Positions 22,796 to 64,000 of a stretch of DNA of 64,000 nucleotides are shown piece after piece. This stretch comes from Eubacteriales bacterium (lineage in GTDB: Bacteria > Bacillota > Clostridia > Oscillospirales > CAG-272). Within the stretch, counting starts at the first letter, position 1. Every line of letters starts with the position of its first letter. Both the position numbers and the translations under genes were made by a program. The DNA lies in assembly GCA_045593985.1 (NCBI GenBank), contig JAZNXR010000002.1, positions 3,790 through 67,789 of the forward strand, written 5' to 3'. Under the pieces are notes generated by a model that did not search any database, was not told where the DNA came from, and was given only the letters and a program-made list of their open reading frames with translations.

Positions 22796-23506
22796 TTATA
22801 ACGGCTTTGATGAAATTCTTGCGTAGGCGCGAGGGAACTGCGGAGGGGTGTCACGGCGTTTGTCAATGATGATAAGGCATCGCTCATCGCCCTCGCCGCC
22901 GACGAGAGTGAATTTCTTGACCTCGCGCGGCTTGCCGCCGAGAGTGCCGATGCCCGAAAGCGCTTCGGAAAGCTCCTCGTCTGCAAGTCGGCTCTTCATT
23001 GATAAGAACACGCCGCCGACCTTCAAAAACGGCAGACAAAGCTCCGAAAGAACGTTAAGGCGTGCGACCGCACGGGCGCTTACCGCAGTATAGCGCTGAC
23101 GGTAGCTTCTGTTATTCGCAAGTATTTCGGCACGTGCCGAGATCGTTTTAAGGTTAGTTATGCCGAGCTTTTCGGCGGTTGTGCGTATAAAATCGATCTT
23201 CTTGCCCGTGCTGTCAAGGGCGGTGACCGAAATATCGGGGCGAAGGATCGCAAAGGGGAAGGCGGGAAGCCCTGCGCCGCTTCCGACGTCGAGCAGATCT
23301 GCGCCTTGCGGAATGTCCTTTACGCAGACGGCGCAGTCGGCAATATGCTTGATTATCGCCTCGTCGGGATCCTTTATTGCCGTGAGATTCGTCACCTTAT
23401 TTGTTTCGAGAAGCTCGTACAGATAATCGGAGAGAAGCTTCGCTTGCGGATTGTTGACGGACACGCCGTTATCCTTTAATGCGGCCTTTATTTTTTCTGA
23501 ATACAT
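22796..23506 (-). CDS. rsmG: 16S rRNA (guanine527-N7)-methyltransferase
   Basis: LLDVGSGAGLPAFP SAM motif, GidB-like length, immediately downstream of mnmG. Confidence 0.95.
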   Translation of the reverse strand: MYSEKIKAALKDNGVSVNNPQAKLLSDYLYELLETNKVTNLTAIKDPDEAIIKHIADCAVCVKDIPQGADLLDVGSGAGLPAFPFAILRPDISVTALDSTGKKIDFIRTTAEKLGITNLKTISARAEILANNRSYRQRYTAVSARAVARLNVLSELCLPFLKVGGVFLSMKSRLADEELSEALSGIGTLGGKPREVKKFTLVGGEGDERCLIIIDKRRDTPPQFPRAYARISSKPL

Positions 23507-23552: not shown

Positions 23553-23720
23553 CCGTTCCTGCGAGATCCCGATGCCACAAGTGGCATCGCCCTACGGGTT
23601 CGACTGCATCCCGCCGTGTCATTCTGAGTGTAGCGAAGCGGAATCGAACGGCGAAGCCGCGCGAAGTGCAACGAAGCGGAATCTCGGCGGGATTACGCTC
23701 AGGATGACACGCAGGAACGG
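23553..23720 (+). repeat. R3 element (one 96-nt head unit, core, tail) bounded by 11-bp inverted flanks
   Basis: About 98% identical to the unit at 62832-62927. Flanks CCGTTCCTGCG/CGCAGGAACGG. Fills the mnmG-rsmG spacer. Confidence 0.85.
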
Positions 23721-23722
23721 TT

Positions 23723-25591
23723 TTACTCCTTCGCCTTAAGCCATATAAGAAGCACCGAGATATCTGCGGGGCTAACGCCGCTTATGCGTGAGGCCTGACC
23801 GATGTCGGAGGGCTTGATCTTATTAAGCTTCTGACGTGCTTCAAGGCGAAGTCCGTCGATCTTCGAATAGTCGATGTCGGGCGAGAGCTTCTTTTCGGAG
23901 AGCTTTTCAAGCTTCTTCGCCTCGTTTTTCTGGCGCTCGATATAGCCCTCGTATTTGATCATTACCTCCGCCTCGTAGCGAACACGGTAGGGCAGCTGCG
24001 GTCTGGTTATGTCAAATTCGGCAAGCATATCGTAGCTGACCTGCGGTCGACGGAGCAGATCGGATAGGCGCATTCCCGTTGTCATGGGAACGGTGCCCGC
24101 CTCGGTGAGAAGCGCATTCAGCTTGTCGGACGGGGGGATCGACGTTTTGCTCAAACGTCTGATCTCCTCCCTTATCATTTCCTGCTCGGACAGATACGCT
24201 TCGTAGCGCTTATCGCTGATAAGTCCTGCGTATCTGCCGTATTCGATAAGGCGTTCTTCGGCGTTATCCTGACGGAGAAGCAGGCGATATTCCGAGCGAG
24301 AGGTCATGATCCTGTACGGCTCATTCGTGCCCTTTGTGACGAGATCGTCAATGAGCGTTCCGATATATGAGCTGTCACGCGAGAGGATTATCTGCTCTCT
24401 GCCCTGGAGGGAGAGGGCGGCGTTGATGCCGGCGATAAGTCCTTGCGCCGCGGCTTCCTCGTAGCCCGAGGTGCCGTTGAACTGACCTGCGCCGTAGAGC
24501 CCGTTTATGCTCTTGAATTCGAGTGTCGGGTAAAGCTCTGTCGGATCGCAGCAGTCGTACTCAATAGCGTAGGCATTGCGCATCACCTGCGCATTTTCGA
24601 AGCCTATTATTGAATGAAGCATATCCTCCTGAACGTCCTCGGGAAGTGAGGACGAGAAGCCCTGAAGGTACATCTCGTCGGTATCTGCGCCCGTCGGCTC
24701 AAGGAAGAGCTGATGCCGTTCCTTATCGGAAAAACGCACGACCTTATCCTCGATGCTCGGGCAATAGCGTGGGCCGACACCCTCGATCACGCCTGAATAG
24801 AGGGGCGATCGGTGGAGGTTTGAACGTATTATTTCATGTGTTTTGCCATTTGTATAGGCGGTATGACAGGGAATTTGCGTGATGCCGTTCAGCGCTTCGG
24901 GATCGGTATCACGTGAATACGGCGTTATATATTCTTCACCGTCCTGGCGTTCGAGAATATCAAGATTGACCGAACGGCGGTGTATTCTTGCGGGAGTGCC
25001 TGTTTTGAAGCGGCGAAGGGAAATTCCAAGCTCACGGAGATTATCCGAGAGTCCCTTTGACGGAAGCATTCCGTCGGGGCCTGACGAAAAGGCATTTTCA
25101 CCGACAACTATACGGCTGTCAAGATAGGTTCCGCTTGCGATAATGACGGCGTCACATTCCCATTCTGTGCCGAGTGCGGTGACAACACCTGTGACCTTGC
25201 CGTCCGAAACGAGAATTTTTACGATCTCTGCTTGGACAAGGCGCAGATTCTCTGTATTTTCGATAACGCCTTTCATCACCGAACGGTATTTCAAGCGGTC
25301 TGCCTGTATTCTTTTTGAACGTACGGCAGGGCCTTTGCCTGTGTTGAGCGTTCGGCTTTGAAGGGTTACCTTATCGGCACTTCTGCCCATTTCACCGCCG
25401 AGAGCATCTATTTCAAAGACAAGGTGGCCTTTGCCTGTGCCGCCGATCGAGGGGTTGCAGGGCATATTGCCGATGGCATCGAGGTTCATCGTGAAAAGAA
25501 CCGTGTCAATGCCCATTCGTGCCGAAGCGAGCGCTGCTTCAATGCCCGCATGACCTGCGCCGATGACGGAGATTTTCGTGGTTTTTATCAT
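23723..25591 (-). CDS. mnmG: tRNA uridine 5-carboxymethylaminomethyl modification enzyme
   Basis: [15 protein letters not shown] motif and full GidA-like length. Start moved to MIKTTK; the track's 33-aa extension is a translation of the R2 repeat. Confidence 0.95.
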
Positions 25592-25614
25592 CGTATTTTC
25601 CGTAAAAGTGTTAT

Positions 25615-25724
25615 TTGCCTCGCCCTTTGGGAGAGGTGTCGGTCGAAGACCGACGGAGAGGGTAAAAATATCTTTGAGATCCCCTCTCACCGCCTAAAGG
25701 CGGAGCTCCCCCGGAGGGGGAGCC
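25615..25724 (+). repeat. R2 long element (five consecutive hairpins)
   Basis: TTGCCTCGCCC-TTTG-GGAGAGG, TCGGTC-GAA-GACCGA, GAGAGGG..CCCTCTC, CGCC-TAAA-GGCG, GCTCCCC-CGGA-GGGGAGC. Paralogous copy at 28319-28417. Confidence 0.85.
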
Positions 25725-28283: not shown

Positions 28284-28318
28284 GGAAAAAGGAAAGCAAA
28301 ATCGGTAAGAGCGTTGTT

Positions 28319-28417
28319 TTGCCTCGCCCTACGGGAGAGGTGTCAACCGAAGGTTGACGGAGAGGGGAAATCGCCCTCTCACCCGACTTCGTCGGGAGCT
28401 CCCCCCAAGGGGGAGCC
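28319..28417 (+). repeat. R2 long element, second copy
   Basis: Same five-hairpin order as 25615-25724, with covarying stems (TCAACC-GAA-GGTTGA; CCGAC-TTC-GTCGG). Confidence 0.85.
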
Positions 28418-40951: not shown

Positions 40952-41089
40952 GTAGGGGGCGACGTCCTCGACGCCCCGTTGCAACGTTTGAAATCTTAAG
41001 ACCGTTTCTCACTGTTGCATAAATGTTTATAATTATACAAAAAAGATACATTGCTTTTAATGCGGGGCGTCGAGGACGTCGCCCCCTAC
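40952..41089. repeat. R1 inverted doublet (REPIN-like), 27-nt perfect arms, 86-bp spacer
   Basis: GTAGGGGGCGACGTCCTCGACGCCCCG at 40952, and its exact reverse complement ending at 41089. Confidence 0.9.
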
Positions 41090-42410: not shown

Positions 42411-42497
42411 AAGGGGCAAACCGTTTGAATTTTGCCATGCAAAATTCTGCACACGTGAAACCCCTTTCGTTTTAAGTAAGCTTTGTGACGTTTAATT

Positions 42498-42523
42498 GTA
42501 GGGACAGGCGTCCTCGACTGTCC
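42498..42523 (+). repeat. R1 GTAG-headed hairpin, solo copy
   Basis: Identical to 14813-14838. Followed by GGTGCTCCCACGC, as the copy at 1284 is followed by GCTGCTCCCACGC. Confidence 0.85.
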
Positions 42524-42577
42524 GGTGCTCCCACGCTCTGTACATTCTCTATTAAAAAAGATAGATCGAACGTCGTC

Positions 42578-42622
42578 TTGCCTCGCCCTTCGGGAGAGGT
42601 GCCCCGAAGGGGCGGAGAGGGT
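42578..42622 (+). repeat. R2 half element (first two hairpins only)
   Basis: TTGCCTCGCCC-TTCG-GGAGAGGTG CCCC-GAA-GGGG CGGAGAGGGT. Confidence 0.8.
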
Positions 42623-42624
42623 GT

Positions 42625-42658
42625 AAAAAAGGACGCCTTTCGGCGTCCTTTTCTTTTG
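42625..42658 (-). terminator. rho-independent terminator of the SDR/pdxK operon
   Basis: AAGGACGCC-TTTC-GGCGTCCTT with flanking A and T runs. Confidence 0.85.
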
Positions 42659-44481: not shown

Positions 44482-44557
44482 GGGAGCATAGCTCAGCTGG
44501 GAGAGCATCTGCCTTACAAGCAGAGGGTCATAGGTTCGAGCCCTATTGTTCCCACCA
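44482..44557 (+). tRNA. tRNA-Val (anticodon TAC), CCA encoded
   Basis: Cloverleaf folded by hand: acceptor GGGAGCA/TGTTCCC, anticodon loop CTTACAA, T-loop TTCGAGC. Confidence 0.9.
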
Positions 44558-44561
44558 TCAC

Positions 44562-44638
44562 GGCCCGGTAGTTCAGTTGGTTAGAACGCTAGCCTGTCAC
44601 GCTAGAGGTCAGGGGTTCGAGTCCCCTTCGGGTCGCCA
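44562..44638 (+). tRNA. tRNA-Asp (anticodon GTC), CCA encoded
   Basis: Acceptor GGCCCGG/TCGGGTC, anticodon loop CTGTCAC, T-loop TTCGAGT. Confidence 0.9.
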
Positions 44639-44683
44639 CTTTTATTTTCGGCATTCTGCCAAGCTTATTGAGTTGCCGAATAT

Positions 44684-44759
44684 GCCTCGATAGCTCAGTT
44701 GGTAGAGCAGTAGACTGAAAATCTACGTGTCGTTGGTTCAATTCCGACTCGAGGCACCA
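44684..44759 (+). tRNA. tRNA-Phe (anticodon GAA), CCA encoded
   Basis: Acceptor GCCTCGA/TCGAGGC, anticodon loop CTGAAAA, T-loop TTCAATT. Confidence 0.9.
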
Positions 44760-44803
44760 AAAAAGAATAAGTGTGTATCGCAGCCACGCGGTACATACGG
44801 TAT

Positions 44804-44879
44804 GCGGATTTAGCTCATTTGGTAGAGCGCCACCTTGCCAAGGTGGAGGTGGCGGGTTCGAGCCCCGTAATCCGCTCCA
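44804..44879 (+). tRNA. tRNA-Gly (anticodon GCC), CCA encoded
   Basis: Acceptor GCGGATT/AATCCGC, anticodon loop TTGCCAA, T-loop TTCGAGC. Confidence 0.9.
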
Positions 44880-44881
44880 AC

Positions 44882-44922
44882 AAAAAAGCCTAATTTGTCT
44901 ACTTGACAAATTAGGCTTTTTT
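44882..44922 (+). terminator. rho-independent terminator of the tRNA operon
   Basis: A6, GCCTAATTTGTC-TACTT-GACAAATTAGGC, T6. Confidence 0.9.
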
Positions 44923-45075
44923 GAATGATGTTTGCCTTCGACAAATGATGTCGTTTCACTAATGATGCCGCTGACGCTAATGATGTCGGCTTCGCCTAAT
45001 GTTTTGCGGCAAACATCGCATCATTGCGAGTGAAACGAGCAACATCATTATGCGGAGCATAACATCATATCGCCG
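44923..45075. repeat. R4 array: AATGATG-headed units (17-20 nt period) followed by CATCAT(T)-tailed units
   Basis: AATGATG at 44924, 44944, 44961, 44979 (and AATGTTT at 44998). CATCATT at 45019 and 45043, CATCAT at 45063. Confidence 0.7.
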
Positions 45076-45168
45076 TAGGCGATGCCTATTTAATCAAGGC
45101 AAAACGAAAGTAGAATACTTTTACTTACTTTTACCTTGGTTCTGCTCCGTTTGGTTACTCTTTCGCAG

Positions 45169-45198
45169 AAAAAAGCAAGTCGAAAGACTTGCTTTTTT
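45169..45198. terminator. orphan bidirectional terminator-like hairpin
   Basis: A6, GCAAGTC-GAAA-GACTTGC, T6. No ORF on either side. Confidence 0.7.
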
Positions 45199-45286
45199 CA
45201 ATGATATCCGCCCTTCGGTCGGAATAAATCATCTTCGATGATGAAATCACCTTCGGTGATGAGATCCGTCGGGGCGACGGATGAGG
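45199..45286 (+). repeat. string of small hairpins related to R4/R2b (ends in GGATGAGG)
   Basis: ATCAC-CTTCG-GTGAT and ATCCGTC-GGGGC-GACGGAT, with GATGA motifs between. Confidence 0.5.
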
Positions 45287-45365
45287 TTTTCATTCATTTG
45301 TTAAACATCTTTTTGTTTTTACATATAATGTTATTACCCCAATAAAAATAATTTCTCAAAATCCA

Positions 45366-45394
45366 TTGACAAAACGGTCGCTCCGTGATATAAT
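45366..45394 (+). promoter_or_regulatory. sigma-A promoter of tRNA-Cys
   Basis: TTGACA, 17-nt spacer, TATAAT preceded by CGTGA. Confidence 0.8.
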
Positions 45395-45411
45395 ACCCAT
45401 GTTCCGAAAAC

Positions 45412-45486
45412 GGCGACATAGCCAAGTGGTAAGGCCACGGTCTGCAAAACCGTTATTCTCCAGTTCAAATCTGGATGTCGCCTCCA
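45412..45486 (+). tRNA. tRNA-Cys (anticodon GCA), CCA encoded
   Basis: Acceptor GGCGACA/TGTCGCC, 3-bp D stem, anticodon loop CTGCAAA, T-loop TTCAAAT. Confidence 0.9.
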
Positions 45487-45527
45487 AAACAAAAGAGCAC
45501 CCAATTGGGTGCTCTTTTGTTTTGGAG
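45482..45527 (+). terminator. 21-bp perfect hairpin overlapping the tRNA-Cys 3' end
   Basis: CTCCAAAACAAAAGAGCACCC-AATT-GGGTGCTCTTTTGTTTTGGAG. The left arm starts with the tRNA's CTCCA. Confidence 0.7.
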
Positions 45528-60846: not shown

Positions 60847-60879
60847 TTATTCACAATAAATTACTTGGGGGCGAATATC

Positions 60880-62712
60880 TTGACTCCGGAAGCATATAAA
60901 AGAGGAATATGGGACGGACATTCCGATTGCGCTTACGAATATCTCGGCTGTCACCGTGACGGAGACAGCTATGTTTTTCGTGTCTGGGCGCCTGAGGCAA
61001 GAAGCGTTCGTGTTCTCGGCCGCTTTAACGGCTGGGACAGAAACGCGCCCGTTATGACGAACCTCGGCGGCATTTGGGAATATCGCACGCAGGCAAGTCA
61101 GTTTGATGAATATAAGTATTATATAGAGCGCCCCGACGGCTCCTATGTAATGAAGGCAGATCCCTATGCCTTCCATTCCTGCACGCGTCCTGAAACGGCG
61201 TCGAGAATATTCGATCTTTCGGGATATGAGTGGGGCGACGGCGCTTATATGAGGGCGGCAAAAAAGAAAAACCCCCTTAATTCTCCCGTTAACATTTACG
61301 AAATGCACCTCGGCTCGTGGCGCAAATATGAGGACGGAAATCCCTTCTCTTACCGCGCGCTTGCCGATGATCTCGTTCCGTATCTTACTGATATGGGATA
61401 TACACACGTTGAGTTCCTTCCGGTGGCGGAGCATCCCTTTGACGGCTCCTGGGGCTATCAGGTAACGGGCTATTACGCACCGACCTCGCGATACGGAACG
61501 CCGCACGATTTTATGTATCTCGTTGACCGCCTGCATCAGGCGGGCATCGGAGTCATAATCGACTGGGTGGGAGCGCATTTTCCGAAGGACGAATGCGGCC
61601 TATATGAATTCGACGGAAGCTGCTGCTATGAAAACCGCGATCCGAGTCGGCGTGAGCATCCCGAATGGGGAACTCGGCTTTTCGATTTCGGTCGCAACGA
61701 GGTAAGAGCATTCCTTATCTCGAATATAAGATATTGGATCAAGGAATATCACGTTGACGGTATTCGCTGTGACGCCGTTACGAATATGGTATATAAGGAT
61801 TACGCAAGCGATCCCGATTGCTGGCGAAAGCCCTACGATTCGGTAAATCACGATGCGGTGCGCCTTATACGTGATATGAATACGGCTGCATATAGAGAAA
61901 ATCCTTCCGTTATGATGATAGCGGAGGAGGCAACGTCATACCCGCTTGTTACCAAGCCCGGCTACGACGGAGGACTCGGCTTCGGATTTAAATGGAATAT
62001 GGGCTGGATGCACGATACCCTTGACTATATGTCGGTAGATCCGATATACAGAAAGTTCGACCACGATAAGATCACCTTCTCGCTGACCTACGCTTTCTCG
62101 GAAAATCACGTTCTTCCGTTCTCACACGACGAGGTCGTCCACGGTAAGCTTTCCCTTATCGGACGTATGCCGGGAGATTACGGAACGAAGTTCGCATCCC
62201 TGAAGGTGCTGTATTCCTATCTTATGGCACATCCGGGAAAGAAGCTCTTATTTATGGGAGGCGAGCTTGGACAGTTTATCGAGTGGGACGAAAAAAGAGA
62301 GCTTGACTGGTTCCTTCTGAACTACGACAGCCACGCAGATATGCAAAGATTCGTGCGTGCGCTGAATCATTTTTATAAGAACAATTCTCCGCTGTGGGAA
62401 AACGATGCCGATTGGAACGGTTTTTCGTGGCTTAAGGTCGATGACCGTGACAACAGCGTTTTCTCCTTCCGCCGCATCGACAGAAAGGGAAATGAGCTTA
62501 TCGCAGTATTTAATTTCTGCCCCGTTCACCGTCCCGATTACCGCATGGGAATTCCGAATAAGTGTATTCTCAAGCAGGTGTTTACGACAGGCGGAGGAAG
62601 CGAAAAGATAAGGACGGAGAATATTCCGTGCGACGGTCAGAATCAGTCCGCGGTCTTTGATATTCCGCCAATGTCGGCAAGCTTTTATAAGATGACGTAC
62701 GTGCGGAAATGA
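60880..62712 (+). CDS. glgB: 1,4-alpha-glucan branching enzyme
   Basis: GH13 motifs DWVGAHF, GIRCDAV, IAEE, SHDEV. Start is either TTG 60880 (G-rich SD 7 nt upstream) or TTG 60865. Confidence 0.9.
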   Translation: MTPEAYKRGIWDGHSDCAYEYLGCHRDGDSYVFRVWAPEARSVRVLGRFNGWDRNAPVMTNLGGIWEYRTQASQFDEYKYYIERPDGSYVMKADPYAFHSCTRPETASRIFDLSGYEWGDGAYMRAAKKKNPLNSPVNIYEMHLGSWRKYEDGNPFSYRALADDLVPYLTDMGYTHVEFLPVAEHPFDGSWGYQVTGYYAPTSRYGTPHDFMYLVDRLHQAGIGVIIDWVGAHFPKDECGLYEFDGSCCYENRDPSRREHPEWGTRLFDFGRNEVRAFLISNIRYWIKEYHVDGIRCDAVTNMVYKDYASDPDCWRKPYDSVNHDAVRLIRDMNTAAYRENPSVMMIAEEATSYPLVTKPGYDGGLGFGFKWNMGWMHDTLDYMSVDPIYRKFDHDKITFSLTYAFSENHVLPFSHDEVVHGKLSLIGRMPGDYGTKFASLKVLYSYLMAHPGKKLLFMGGELGQFIEWDEKRELDWFLLNYDSHADMQRFVRALNHFYKNNSPLWENDADWNGFSWLKVDDRDNSVFSFRRIDRKGNELIAVFNFCPVHRPDYRMGIPNKCILKQVFTTGGGSEKIRTENIPCDGQNQSAVFDIPPMSASFYKMTYVRK

Positions 62713-62735
62713 TGATTTAGCAAATGTCTTTTTGC

Positions 62736-63006
62736 GAGATCCCGATGCCACAAGCGGCATCGCCCTACGGGTTCGACTGCGTCCCGCCGTGTCATTCTGA
62801 GTGAAGCGAAGCGGAATCGAACGGCGAAGCCGAGATCCCGATGCCACAAGTGGCATCGCCCTGCGGGTTCGACTGCGTCCCGCCGTGTCATTCTGAGTGT
62901 AGCGAAGCGGAATCGAACGGCGAAGCCGCGCGAAGTGCAACGAAGCGGAATCTCGGCGGGACTTCGCTCAGGATGACAAGGCGGGACTCCGCTCAGGATG
63001 ACCGCG
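62736..63006 (+). repeat. R3 element with a tandemly duplicated 96-nt head unit and a duplicated tail
   Basis: Units at 62736-62831 and 62832-62927 (period 96, a few mismatches). Core at 62928-62953. Two tails GGCGGGAC..CGCTCAGGATGAC at 62954-62977 and 62980-63002. Confidence 0.9.
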
Positions 63007-63105
63007 AAAAAACAAGCTCTGATATACGACCTATCTCCGCCAAGAGTGCGGACAAAATATAAAACTAATCTTCGCTTTGCGAGGAAAAGAAAGAAGGTTT
63101 ATTTA

Positions 63106-64000
63106 ATGCCAGTAAGAAGCAAGGAATGCATTGCAATGCTTCTCGCAGGAGGCCAGGGTAGCCGCCTTTACGTTCTGACCGAGAACACGGCAAAGCCCGC
63201 AGTACCCTTTGGAGGAAAATATCGAATCATCGACTATTCTCTTTCAAACTGCGTAAACTCGGGTATCGACACAGTCGGTATTCTTACGCAGTATCAGCCG
63301 CTTGAGCTGAACGATTACATAGGAAACGGTCAGCCGTGGGACTTAAACCGCAATTTCGGCGGCGCACACGTTCTTCCTCCTTATATGAAGACGAAGAACA
63401 ACTCTTGGTACAAGGGTACGGCAAATGCGATCTATCAGAATCTCCATTTCATAGACCGCTATAACCCCGAGTACGTTCTTATCCTTTCGGGCGACCACAT
63501 CTACAAGATGGACTACTCGAAGATGCTCTCCTTCCATAAGGAAAAGGAGGCAGAATGTACCATCGCCGTTCGTACCGTTCCGATCGAGGAAGCGTCGAGA
63601 ATGGGCATTATGAGCACCGATAATACCGACCGTATTACGGAGTTCGAGGAAAAGCCGAAGGTGCCGAAAAGCAATCTCGCATCTATGGGCGTTTATATCT
63701 TCAACTGGAAAACGCTTAAGCAGTATCTTATAGATGACGAAAACGATCCAAACTCGTCTAACGACTTCGGTAAGAATATTATCCCCGCCTTCTTAAAGGA
63801 CGGCAGAGGACTTTACGCTTATACGTTTGACGGCTATTGGCGTGACGTCGGAACTCTTGACTCGCTCTGGCAGGCGAATATGGATCTTCTTGATCCTGCC
63901 CGCCCGATAAACGTAGGCGCACCCAAGAAGTTCCGTATTTACAGCCGTAACTACGCACAGCCGCCGTCTAATATCGTAAAGGGATCGGTGGTAAAGAACT
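63106..64000 (+). CDS. glgC: glucose-1-phosphate adenylyltransferase, N-terminal part (runs off the window)
   Basis: [27 protein letters not shown] signature. Frame is open to nt 64000. Absent from the ORF track because it has no stop. Confidence 0.9.

Follow-up and report, generated by a model that had tools for sequence, protein, structure and literature searches.

A doubled R3 repeat between glgB and glgC in a clostridial genome may be one intergenic element nested in another

Composite repeats are known from streptococci, where the BOX elements of Streptococcus pneumoniae and the composites of S. suis differ in module number between loci and strains (Martin et al. 1992; Croucher et al. 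2011, PMC3049150), and where BOX, RUP and SPRITE repeats insert into one another (PMC3049150; PMC10969869). In the enterobacterial mosaics of repetitive extragenic palindromes (REP) and bacterial interspersed mosaic elements (BIME), the insertion sequences IS1397 and ISKpn1 use REP palindromes as insertion sites (Bachellier et al. 1994; Wilde et al. 2001, reviewed in PMC3184786). [quoted passage not shown] Here we describe R3, a non-coding, hairpin-rich composite intergenic repeat of ~148 nt and of the BOX/BIME/MITE kind, in a 64-kb stretch of contig JAZNXR010000002.1 (hereafter the window; all R3 locus coordinates are + strand positions in it). R3 is apparently an undescribed, sparsely distributed modular repeat family of poorly studied rumen and gut Clostridia. 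It occurs twice in the window, and the copy between glgB and glgC has two 5' parts (heads) and two 3' parts (tails) around a single core. We propose that this copy may well be a complete R3 nested in an older R3 of coreless type.

R3 shares features with each of these systems. Like BOX, it is small, non-coding, modular and intergenic, has strong predicted structure, is often co-transcribed, clusters with other repeats and has no firmly known mobilising enzyme. The two sequences appear unrelated on inspection of the consensus only, and the hosts differ, R3 belonging to Oscillospiraceae/Ruminococcaceae-type Clostridia; we class R3 as the same kind of element as BOX and not as a demonstrated member of its family. 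In BOX the central boxB varies in number while the terminal boxA and boxC are single, whereas the glgB-glgC copy of R3 has doubled terminal parts and a single centre, which fits nesting better than array expansion. Like REP/BIME, R3 forms G+C-rich palindromic mosaics in operon spacers, with palindromes as insertion targets. REP units are 35–40 nt long and have known effects on mRNA stability (PMC3184786), whereas R3 has ~148 nt, several distinct hairpins and no GTAG head; it is not the 20–40-nt palindrome with GTAG-type head, often arranged in inverted doublets, that defines REP/REPIN. The inserting unit in R3 is itself a small non-coding repeat, unlike the transposase-bearing insertion sequences of the REP/BIME case. 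With MITEs, R3 shares size, folding, intergenic position, multiple diverged copies and occasional internal tandem repeats. Unlike MITEs, many R3 copies are bracketed by copy-specific inverted rather than direct repeats; a target-site duplication, if any, would possibly be the dinucleotide CG.

Comparison of ~12 copies defines the R3 modules. A 5' arm consists of h5 (CGAGATYCCG), a hairpin, H1, whose sequence varies among genomes yet remains a hairpin, and hm (CCCTNCGGGTTCGAC). Block A (GTCCCGCC) and block B (GTCATTCTGAGYG) follow, then a short variable hairpin, the motif TCGAAC and a small hairpin that is GGC-GAA-GCC, TGC-GAA-GCA or an 11-bp stem. An optional core of ~27–28 nt ends in c3 (CGGAATCTCG), and the 3' end comprises A' (GGCGGGAC), a 2-nt linker, B' (CGCTCAGGATGAC) and a final A or AA. 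Blocks A and A' are 8-bp inverted repeats bounding a module that contains B, the variable hairpin, TCGAAC, the small hairpin and the optional core, and B' forms the 3' arm.

The glgB-glgC copy departs from this plan by doubling its ends. Tandem Repeats Finder reported a head array at 62735–62928 (period 96, 2.0 copies, 96% matches, zero indels) and a tail array at 62955–63002 (period 25, 1.9 copies, 95% matches), and direct reading of the window sequence agreed with both. Head 1 (62735–62830, +) and head 2 (62831–62926) differ at 3 of 96 bases (unit positions 21, 33 and 70), tail 1 (62955–62977) and tail 2 (62980–63002, +) at 1 of 23, and the core (62927–62954) is present once, as the initial annotation had described. 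Head 1 comprises h5 (62735–62744), H1, hm, A (62781–62788), B (62791–62803), TCGAAC and the small hairpin GGCGAAGCC. Head 2 has A at 62877–62884 and B at 62887–62899, the core has c3 at 62946–62955, tail 1 has A' at 62955–62962 and B' at 62965–62977 followed by a terminal AA (62978–62979), and tail 2 has A' at 62980–62987, the linker TC and B' at 62990–63002. Of each 25-nt tail period, only 23 bases are repeated; the other two are unrelated, AA behind tail 1 and CG behind tail 2, and the tail array is not a clean tandem duplication.

These parts can be read as two R3 units, one inside the other. The putative inner element (62831–62979, +) starts with CGAGATCC and ends with GATGACAA, the same ends as in the second window copy and in L007a/b, L012, L009, L015, L016 and L004 (L handles denote loci in other assemblies). 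That second copy, at 23562–23709 (+), has one head, one core and one tail, and the inner element is overall 97% identical to it: 94 of 96 head bases (97.9%, matching the ~98% first noted), 28 of 28 core bases and 21 of 23 tail bases, with query positions 2–148 aligned by nhmmer at E = 7e-40. What remains around the inner element is an R3 without a core, namely 62735–62830, ending TCGAAC-GGCGAAGC(C), plus 62980–63002 (A'-TC-B'). Coreless R3 occurs elsewhere, in L007b and in a reversed unit in L001, where TCGAA lies 18 nt from B' versus 48 nt in 8 cored copies.

Nesting also accounts for details of the arrays. The head array starts exactly at the R3 5' terminus and the tail array stops exactly at the 3' terminus, which nesting predicts and random duplication does not. 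The AA between the tails differs from both the preceding TC and the following CG, and a single nesting event would explain both apparent duplications in the same copy as well as an AA that lies outside the repeat. It would likewise explain why heads 1 and 2 differ at sites that are polymorphic between genomes: head 1 carries C21 and A70, and its bases are found elsewhere as AAGCGG (L007b) and GTGAAG (L003, L009, L012), while the tail 2 linker variant CTC is the commonest in other genomes (L003, L004, L007a, L012, L014, L015, L016). In the sequence of events we envisage, an outer, older R3 of coreless type (62735–62830 plus 62980–63002) first held the repeat-prone spot behind the glgB stop codon, and a complete R3 (62831–62979), a close relative of the 23562 copy, later inserted just 5' of the outer A'. 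Since host and guest would be homologous, the product would look like head-head-core-tail-tail, and the matching of head and tail numbers would follow from one nesting of homologous elements.

Another locus provides a precedent. In L008 the stem TTTTTCGTCCG-AAA-CGGACGAAAAA stands intact where an A-A' module has its small hairpin. L015 has this stem in an identical context, but there its two halves are separated by a complete R3-type unit, whose flanking inverted repeat TTTTTCGTCCG / CGGACGAAAAA reaches 12 contiguous pairs in an automated scan with small offsets. By this alignment the head-head arrangement of L015 is demonstrably a nested insertion into a hairpin loop, and comparison of L008 with L015 suggests insertion into the AAA loop without target duplication. 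The L015 insertion lies just behind TCGAAC, as in the window. It is the only other head-head arrangement in ~0.37 Mb, and it holds two B blocks and one B'.

Several observations weigh against nesting at glgB-glgC. The predicted empty outer junction, TCGAAC-GGCGAAGCC directly followed by GGCGGGAC, was not found in ~0.37 Mb, and the linker of the known coreless copies is another one (TGGGTCTG). Only three complementary bases (GCC/GGC) border the inner unit, which shows no clear split hairpin of the kind seen in L015 and around the 23562 copy. As the heads differ by three bases only, the lineage argument has just two informative sites behind it. No transposase or other mobilising gene was identified, and neither window copy has a counterpart empty site among the sequences recovered from its own lineage. 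The sample is also small, at ~12 copies, mostly one per genome, collected with a probe that demanded an exact A/B junction. The order of the two insertions is inferred, and so are the lack of a core in the outer copy, the involvement of a mobilising enzyme and whatever influence the element has on expression.

Two explanations would dispense with nesting altogether. It is possible, if doubtful, that one R3 underwent two separate tandem duplications in place, of the 96-nt head and of the ~25-nt tail, by replication slippage or unequal crossing-over, perhaps favoured by polymerase stalling at the base of the large stem-loop, so that the matched numbers are coincidental. The exact 96-nt period without indels suits this, as does the TCGAA-to-B' distance of 144 nt, which equals 48 + 96; the three head differences and one tail difference could postdate duplication, boxB arrays do change module number by unequal crossover (PMC3049150), and the outer coreless form that nesting requires was not observed elsewhere. 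However, neither duplication occurs in the ~11 other copies, which makes two independent events in one copy improbable and bears out the earlier remark that matching numbers are unexpected for random slippage. Both arrays are anchored precisely at element termini, the tail junction would need two adjacent substitutions against one difference in 23 repeated bases, the microhomology at the head junction is only 2 nt (CG), and the head differences coincide with sites variable between genomes. Least probable of all is an assembly artefact in which strain variants of a truly one-headed, one-tailed locus were joined in series. Relatives are known from metagenome assemblies only, the contig of a ~90% relative breaks inside the element, which marks such repeats as hard to assemble, and the two heads, like the two tails, differ at a few sites, as strain variants would. 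Against this, the junctions GGCGAAGC|CGAGATCC and GATGACAA|GGCGGGAC are impossible to obtain from a one-headed, one-tailed element, so spanning reads must exist, and the arrays sit within an otherwise collinear operon.

The remaining alternatives give the doubling a function. The initial annotation proposed that head and tail numbers are kept equal so that each A and B block retains a partner, or that the element grows by a templated mechanism adding head and tail together; we consider this quite improbable. The complementarity behind it is real and covaries: in the glg copy A:A' pairs 8 of 8 by Watson-Crick rules and B:B' forms 13 bp with two T.G pairs on the + strand, and A:A' and B:B' are maintained across copies (97–98% of cells paired) with a compensatory A:A' change, ATCCCGCC/GGCGGGAT in the 23562 copy versus GTCCCGCC/GGCGGGAC in the glg copy. 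In nine aligned copies, 92.8% of cells are paired against 31–41% when partners are slid by 1–3 columns, and seven pairs have changed on both sides, a count reached in 0 of 500 shuffles. The long-range complements h5:c3, A:A' and B:B' cross one another. Given the identical order of the blocks in A-B and A'-B' and their 2-nt linkers, A:A' and B:B' should be unable to form together within a single unit. A second tail removes this conflict of the single-copy order, since B'1-AA-A'2 then complements A-GT-B over 23 contiguous nt, and it adds about -20 kcal/mol.

Modelled RNA folds nevertheless give equal numbers no special standing. For synthetic constructs, the minimum free energy was -68.8 kcal/mol with one head and one tail, -112.2 with two heads and one tail, -89.0 with one head and two tails and -136.0 with two of each; the energies are essentially additive, and the 2:2 form gains only -3.6 kcal/mol beyond additivity. 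Its predicted fold joins the A-B stretch of head 1 to B'1-AA-A'2 in one contiguous helix and block A of head 2 to A'1, and the B block of head 2 is left without a B' partner, so that one of the two B blocks is paired with B'. In these models the second tail makes a contiguous complement of A-GT-B, and nothing demands equal numbers. As to head and tail numbers elsewhere, ~11 other R3 copies are 1:1, and the only other multi-head copy, L015, with its two B blocks and one B', is unmatched. The argument from G.U wobbles on the sense strand held for one helix only. In 7 of 9 copies the + strand of B:B' has two T.G positions, but h5:c3 carries C.A on that strand (G.T on the - strand) in 7 of 9, so that no strand is consistently favoured, and R3 orientation relative to flanking genes is mixed by a rough inference from open reading frames (ORFs). 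At the same site, the arrangement is broken in L017, a rearranged ~90% relative. Templated growth is unnecessary where one nesting event would suffice, the inner unit having canonical termini. Neither a functional matching of heads and tails nor templated growth is supported; most simply, the behaviour would be that of ordinary selfish DNA. Quasipalindrome-templated correction was also considered as a source of matched duplication and rejected, the tail order A'-B' not being the reverse complement of the head order A-B.

R3 could instead be a structured cis-acting RNA, for instance one that regulates glgC from between the two cistrons or that governs processing or stability, with a function tuned by the duplication, which we regard as unlikely. 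Its hairpins covary as described above, the sense strand folds very stably (z = -5.4), transcription meets no terminator in its own direction, and REP, BIME and BOX are known to affect co-transcribed genes (PMC3049150; PMC3184786). But no Rfam family matches even at E = 10, copies lie sense and antisense to their neighbours in roughly equal numbers, the neighbouring genes are unrelated (glg, mnmG/rsmG and others), and close relatives have other repeats and no R3 at the same spacers. Covarying hairpins are expected equally of DNA hairpins recognised by a recombinase. The orientation given in the initial annotation, sense within a glgB-glgC co-transcript, is upheld by the 4–40 nt that separate these genes in relatives. 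Transcription of glgC presumably reads through the very stable structure, and by analogy an effect on mRNA stability or processing might follow. Under nesting, the composite would form a very stable, terminator-free part of the glgBC operon transcript and would be at most an incidental modifier of mRNA stability or processing, like REP and BOX.

Where R3 inserts is the most interesting lead, in the form of an apparent targeting of hairpin loops by a non-coding repeat. Beyond L015, copies are flanked by inverted repeats of their own. A perfect 11-bp repeat surrounds the 23562 copy, with left arm CCGTTCCTGCG (23553–23563, +) and right arm CGCAGGAACGG (23710–23720) forming 11 contiguous pairs; L007a has CAAGTGCCCG / CGGGCACTTG (10 bp), and further repeats occur at L007b (11 of 12), L012 (7 bp) and L009 (6 bp). 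The whole glg composite lies within an imperfect one, GTCTTTTTGCG at 62726–62736 (+) being complementary at 9 of 11 positions to CGCGAAAAAAC at 63003–63013 (+); the predicted fold pairs these arms, and the left junction recurs in L017. Flanking repeats are perfect over 10–12 bp in three copies, while none of 108 mismatched controls, which combined left and right flanks of different copies, reached 8 bp. In L001 other repeats lie inside R3 hairpins. Many copies are bracketed CG...CG, but this CG also belongs to the flanking palindrome. The strong inverted repeats of R3 itself (A/A', B/B' and h5/c3) are internal, and in none of the examined loci did two R3 ends lie on either side of an ORF.

R3 copies may well spread at the DNA level and tend to land in hairpin or palindrome centres, including the hairpins of other repeats. 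We tentatively suggest further that R3-type units are mobile DNA that integrates specifically at the apex of hairpins or the centre of palindromes, through a structure-specific enzyme that probably acts on single-stranded DNA. Their targets would then include terminator-like stems, other repeats' hairpins and their own relatives, and each split stem would be left behind as a copy-specific inverted repeat. Self-nesting would be the way in which these composite repeats grow and diversify, and h5:c3, A:A' and B:B' would be structures for recognition or synapsis. The doubled copy alone matters little, being one structural variant of a selfish intergenic repeat that offers no evidence for a new regulatory principle; hairpin-loop insertion, if it were verified and its enzyme found, would be moderately interesting to the mobile-DNA field.

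Across genomes, the R3 modules recur in differing combinations and numbers, as in composite repeats. A 20-mer across the A/B junction marks 13 loci in species-representative genomes, nearly all of them rumen or gut metagenome-assembled genomes (MAGs) labelled Clostridia, Oscillospiraceae or Ruminococcus. Besides the two window copies, R3 occurs in at least nine contigs from MAGs or metagenomes, always in intergenic DNA, and GlgB and RsmG homologues assign the window to the same Clostridia group as these carriers. Units may be cored, coreless, without H1 (L007a) or with an extra-hairpin head (L011, L017), and the A-A' module is inverted in L017 and stands alone in L002 and L008. Because of that inversion and the covariation of its bounding blocks (L007b has GCGTCGC/GCGACGC in place of A/A'), the A/A'-bounded module appears to behave as a separate unit. 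In L006 (16–560), a series of related h5-hairpin-hm units is followed directly by a hairpin and B', without A, B or core, and such units are interleaved with the A-A' module. This arrangement suggests an independent element made of the 5' and 3' arms alone, which later received the A-A' module as an insert.

The exact 20-mer also appears in bins assigned to other phyla, in a Bacteroides MAG (L013, 4217–4295) and in Firmicutes bin ADurb.Bin193 (L005, 4717–4790), where it belongs to a simple hairpin, TCCCGCC-GTGTCATTCTGAG ... TTCAGGATGACA, without h5, core or A'. The explanation is either contamination of these bins or a very wide distribution of the B:B' hairpin module. A match in L010 (Phycisphaerales) was set aside as probably a chance occurrence of the 20-mer, of which about one is expected in 596 Gb; it lacks the other modules.

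The glgB-glgC spacer is a site where repeats accumulate. It measures 393 nt in the window versus 40 nt in L018 and 4 nt in L019 (GlgB 78% identical), which shows that R3 is an insertion at the glg site. In relatives at ~90%, conservation of the spacer is confined to its final ~85 nt (window 63027–63105). Right behind the glgB stop, L030–L035 carry an unrelated GGCTCCCTCC...GGGAGC repeat and L036 and L037 a small CCTTCTCC palindrome, while the ~90% relative L017 has an R3-type element at the identical left junction, with a forward head and the segment from TCGAAC to A' reverse-complemented. The contig of this closest GlgB relative stops inside the element (L017, 2912–3039), a typical repeat assembly break, and the R3 family thus breaks metagenome assemblies. 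The mnmG-rsmG spacers of relatives with 92–95% RsmG identity hold other repeats and no R3, and ~170 kb of DNA from RsmG relatives yielded no further R3. Because relatives carry different repeats at the same spots, and because of the L017 inversion, both spacers appear to have been colonised repeatedly and R3 itself to rearrange. Strains at 90–95% protein identity (L017, L030–L037; L020–L029) have entirely different repeats at these same two spots, which indicates that small repeats probably turn over or are replaced fast at fixed landing places; the locus documents how quickly one kind of repeat gives way to another at a given intergenic position inside an operon.

Searches for a described identity returned none. 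Against Rfam 15, the whole window gave only tRNAs at gathering score, and 62650–63110 at E up to 10 gave at best spurious eukaryotic miRNA, snoRNA and lncRNA models of 13–16 bits. ARAGORN found no tRNA or tmRNA in 62600–63150, despite the GGGTTCGA motif, and a scan of 62500–63250 found no terminator or sigma-70-type promoter inside the element. No R3 match emerged from blastn against plasmid and phage records; in viral contigs, the tail and A/B-junction patterns had zero matches and a 16-mer had four chance matches within coding sequence, none with other R3 modules. Spurious R3 translations had no candidates in a collection of 5.8 billion proteins, a metagenome scan with the core/tail junction recovered three short contigs only, and full-text literature searches with the block sequences found unrelated primers only. 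A hammerhead- or twister-type ribozyme, considered from CTGAG..GAA motifs, was rejected, with no fit to CUGANGA by inspection and no Rfam match.

The flanking genes are as first annotated, by their Pfam domains. Upstream, glgB (60865–62712, +) encodes a 1,4-alpha-glucan branching enzyme with CBM_48, Alpha-amylase, Alpha-amylase_C and GlgB_N domains, and its homologues in Oscillospiraceae, Ruminococcaceae and Clostridia MAGs carry the name GlgB. Downstream, glgC (63106–64000, +; NTP_transferase, E = 2e-70) encodes a glucose-1-phosphate adenylyltransferase and runs off the window end. The glgB-glgC order is orthologous in L018, L019 and L030. An ancestral part of the spacer outside R3 (63027–63105, +) aligns with the spacers of L030–L033 and L036–L037; these ~80 nt upstream of glgC are kept in ~90% relatives whichever repeat precedes them. 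The segment holds a hairpin, TCCGCC-N7-GCGGA, and a ribosome-binding region, AAGAAGG, and may be a genuine glgC leader or internal promoter region. The second R3 copy lies between mnmG (23723–25690, -) and rsmG (22796–23506, -), antisense to both.

Other small repeats share the window. A GTAG-headed palindrome family, TTGTAGGG-N-GACGTCCYCGAC..., separate from R3, occurs at 40952–40978/41063–41089, 14812–14840/14924–14952, 1282–1322 and 42496–42536, with inverted doublets ~84 nt apart and one pair complementary at 27 of 27 positions. By their sequence these palindromes look REP/REPIN-type, in which case the genome should also encode a RAYT-like transposase. A repeat built around CACCTCATCC... 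and the palindrome CCTTCYCC-NNNN-GGRGAAGG occurs at 267–297 and 36672–36706/36828–36862 and in spacers of L007, L009, L012, L020 and L027; it adjoins R3 in several genomes and fills the mnmG-rsmG spacer in 92–95% relatives. A third small repeat, family D3, consists of TTTGCCTCGCCCTTYGGGAGAGGTG, a hairpin and GGAGAGGG (25614–25666, 28318–28370 and 42577–42629). Finally, a perfect, spacerless 23+23-nt palindrome, CTCCAAAACAAAAGAGCACCCAA / TTGGGTGCTCTTTTGTTTTGGAG (45482–45527), shares its first two bases with the end of the fifth tRNA gene in a cluster at 44482–45483.

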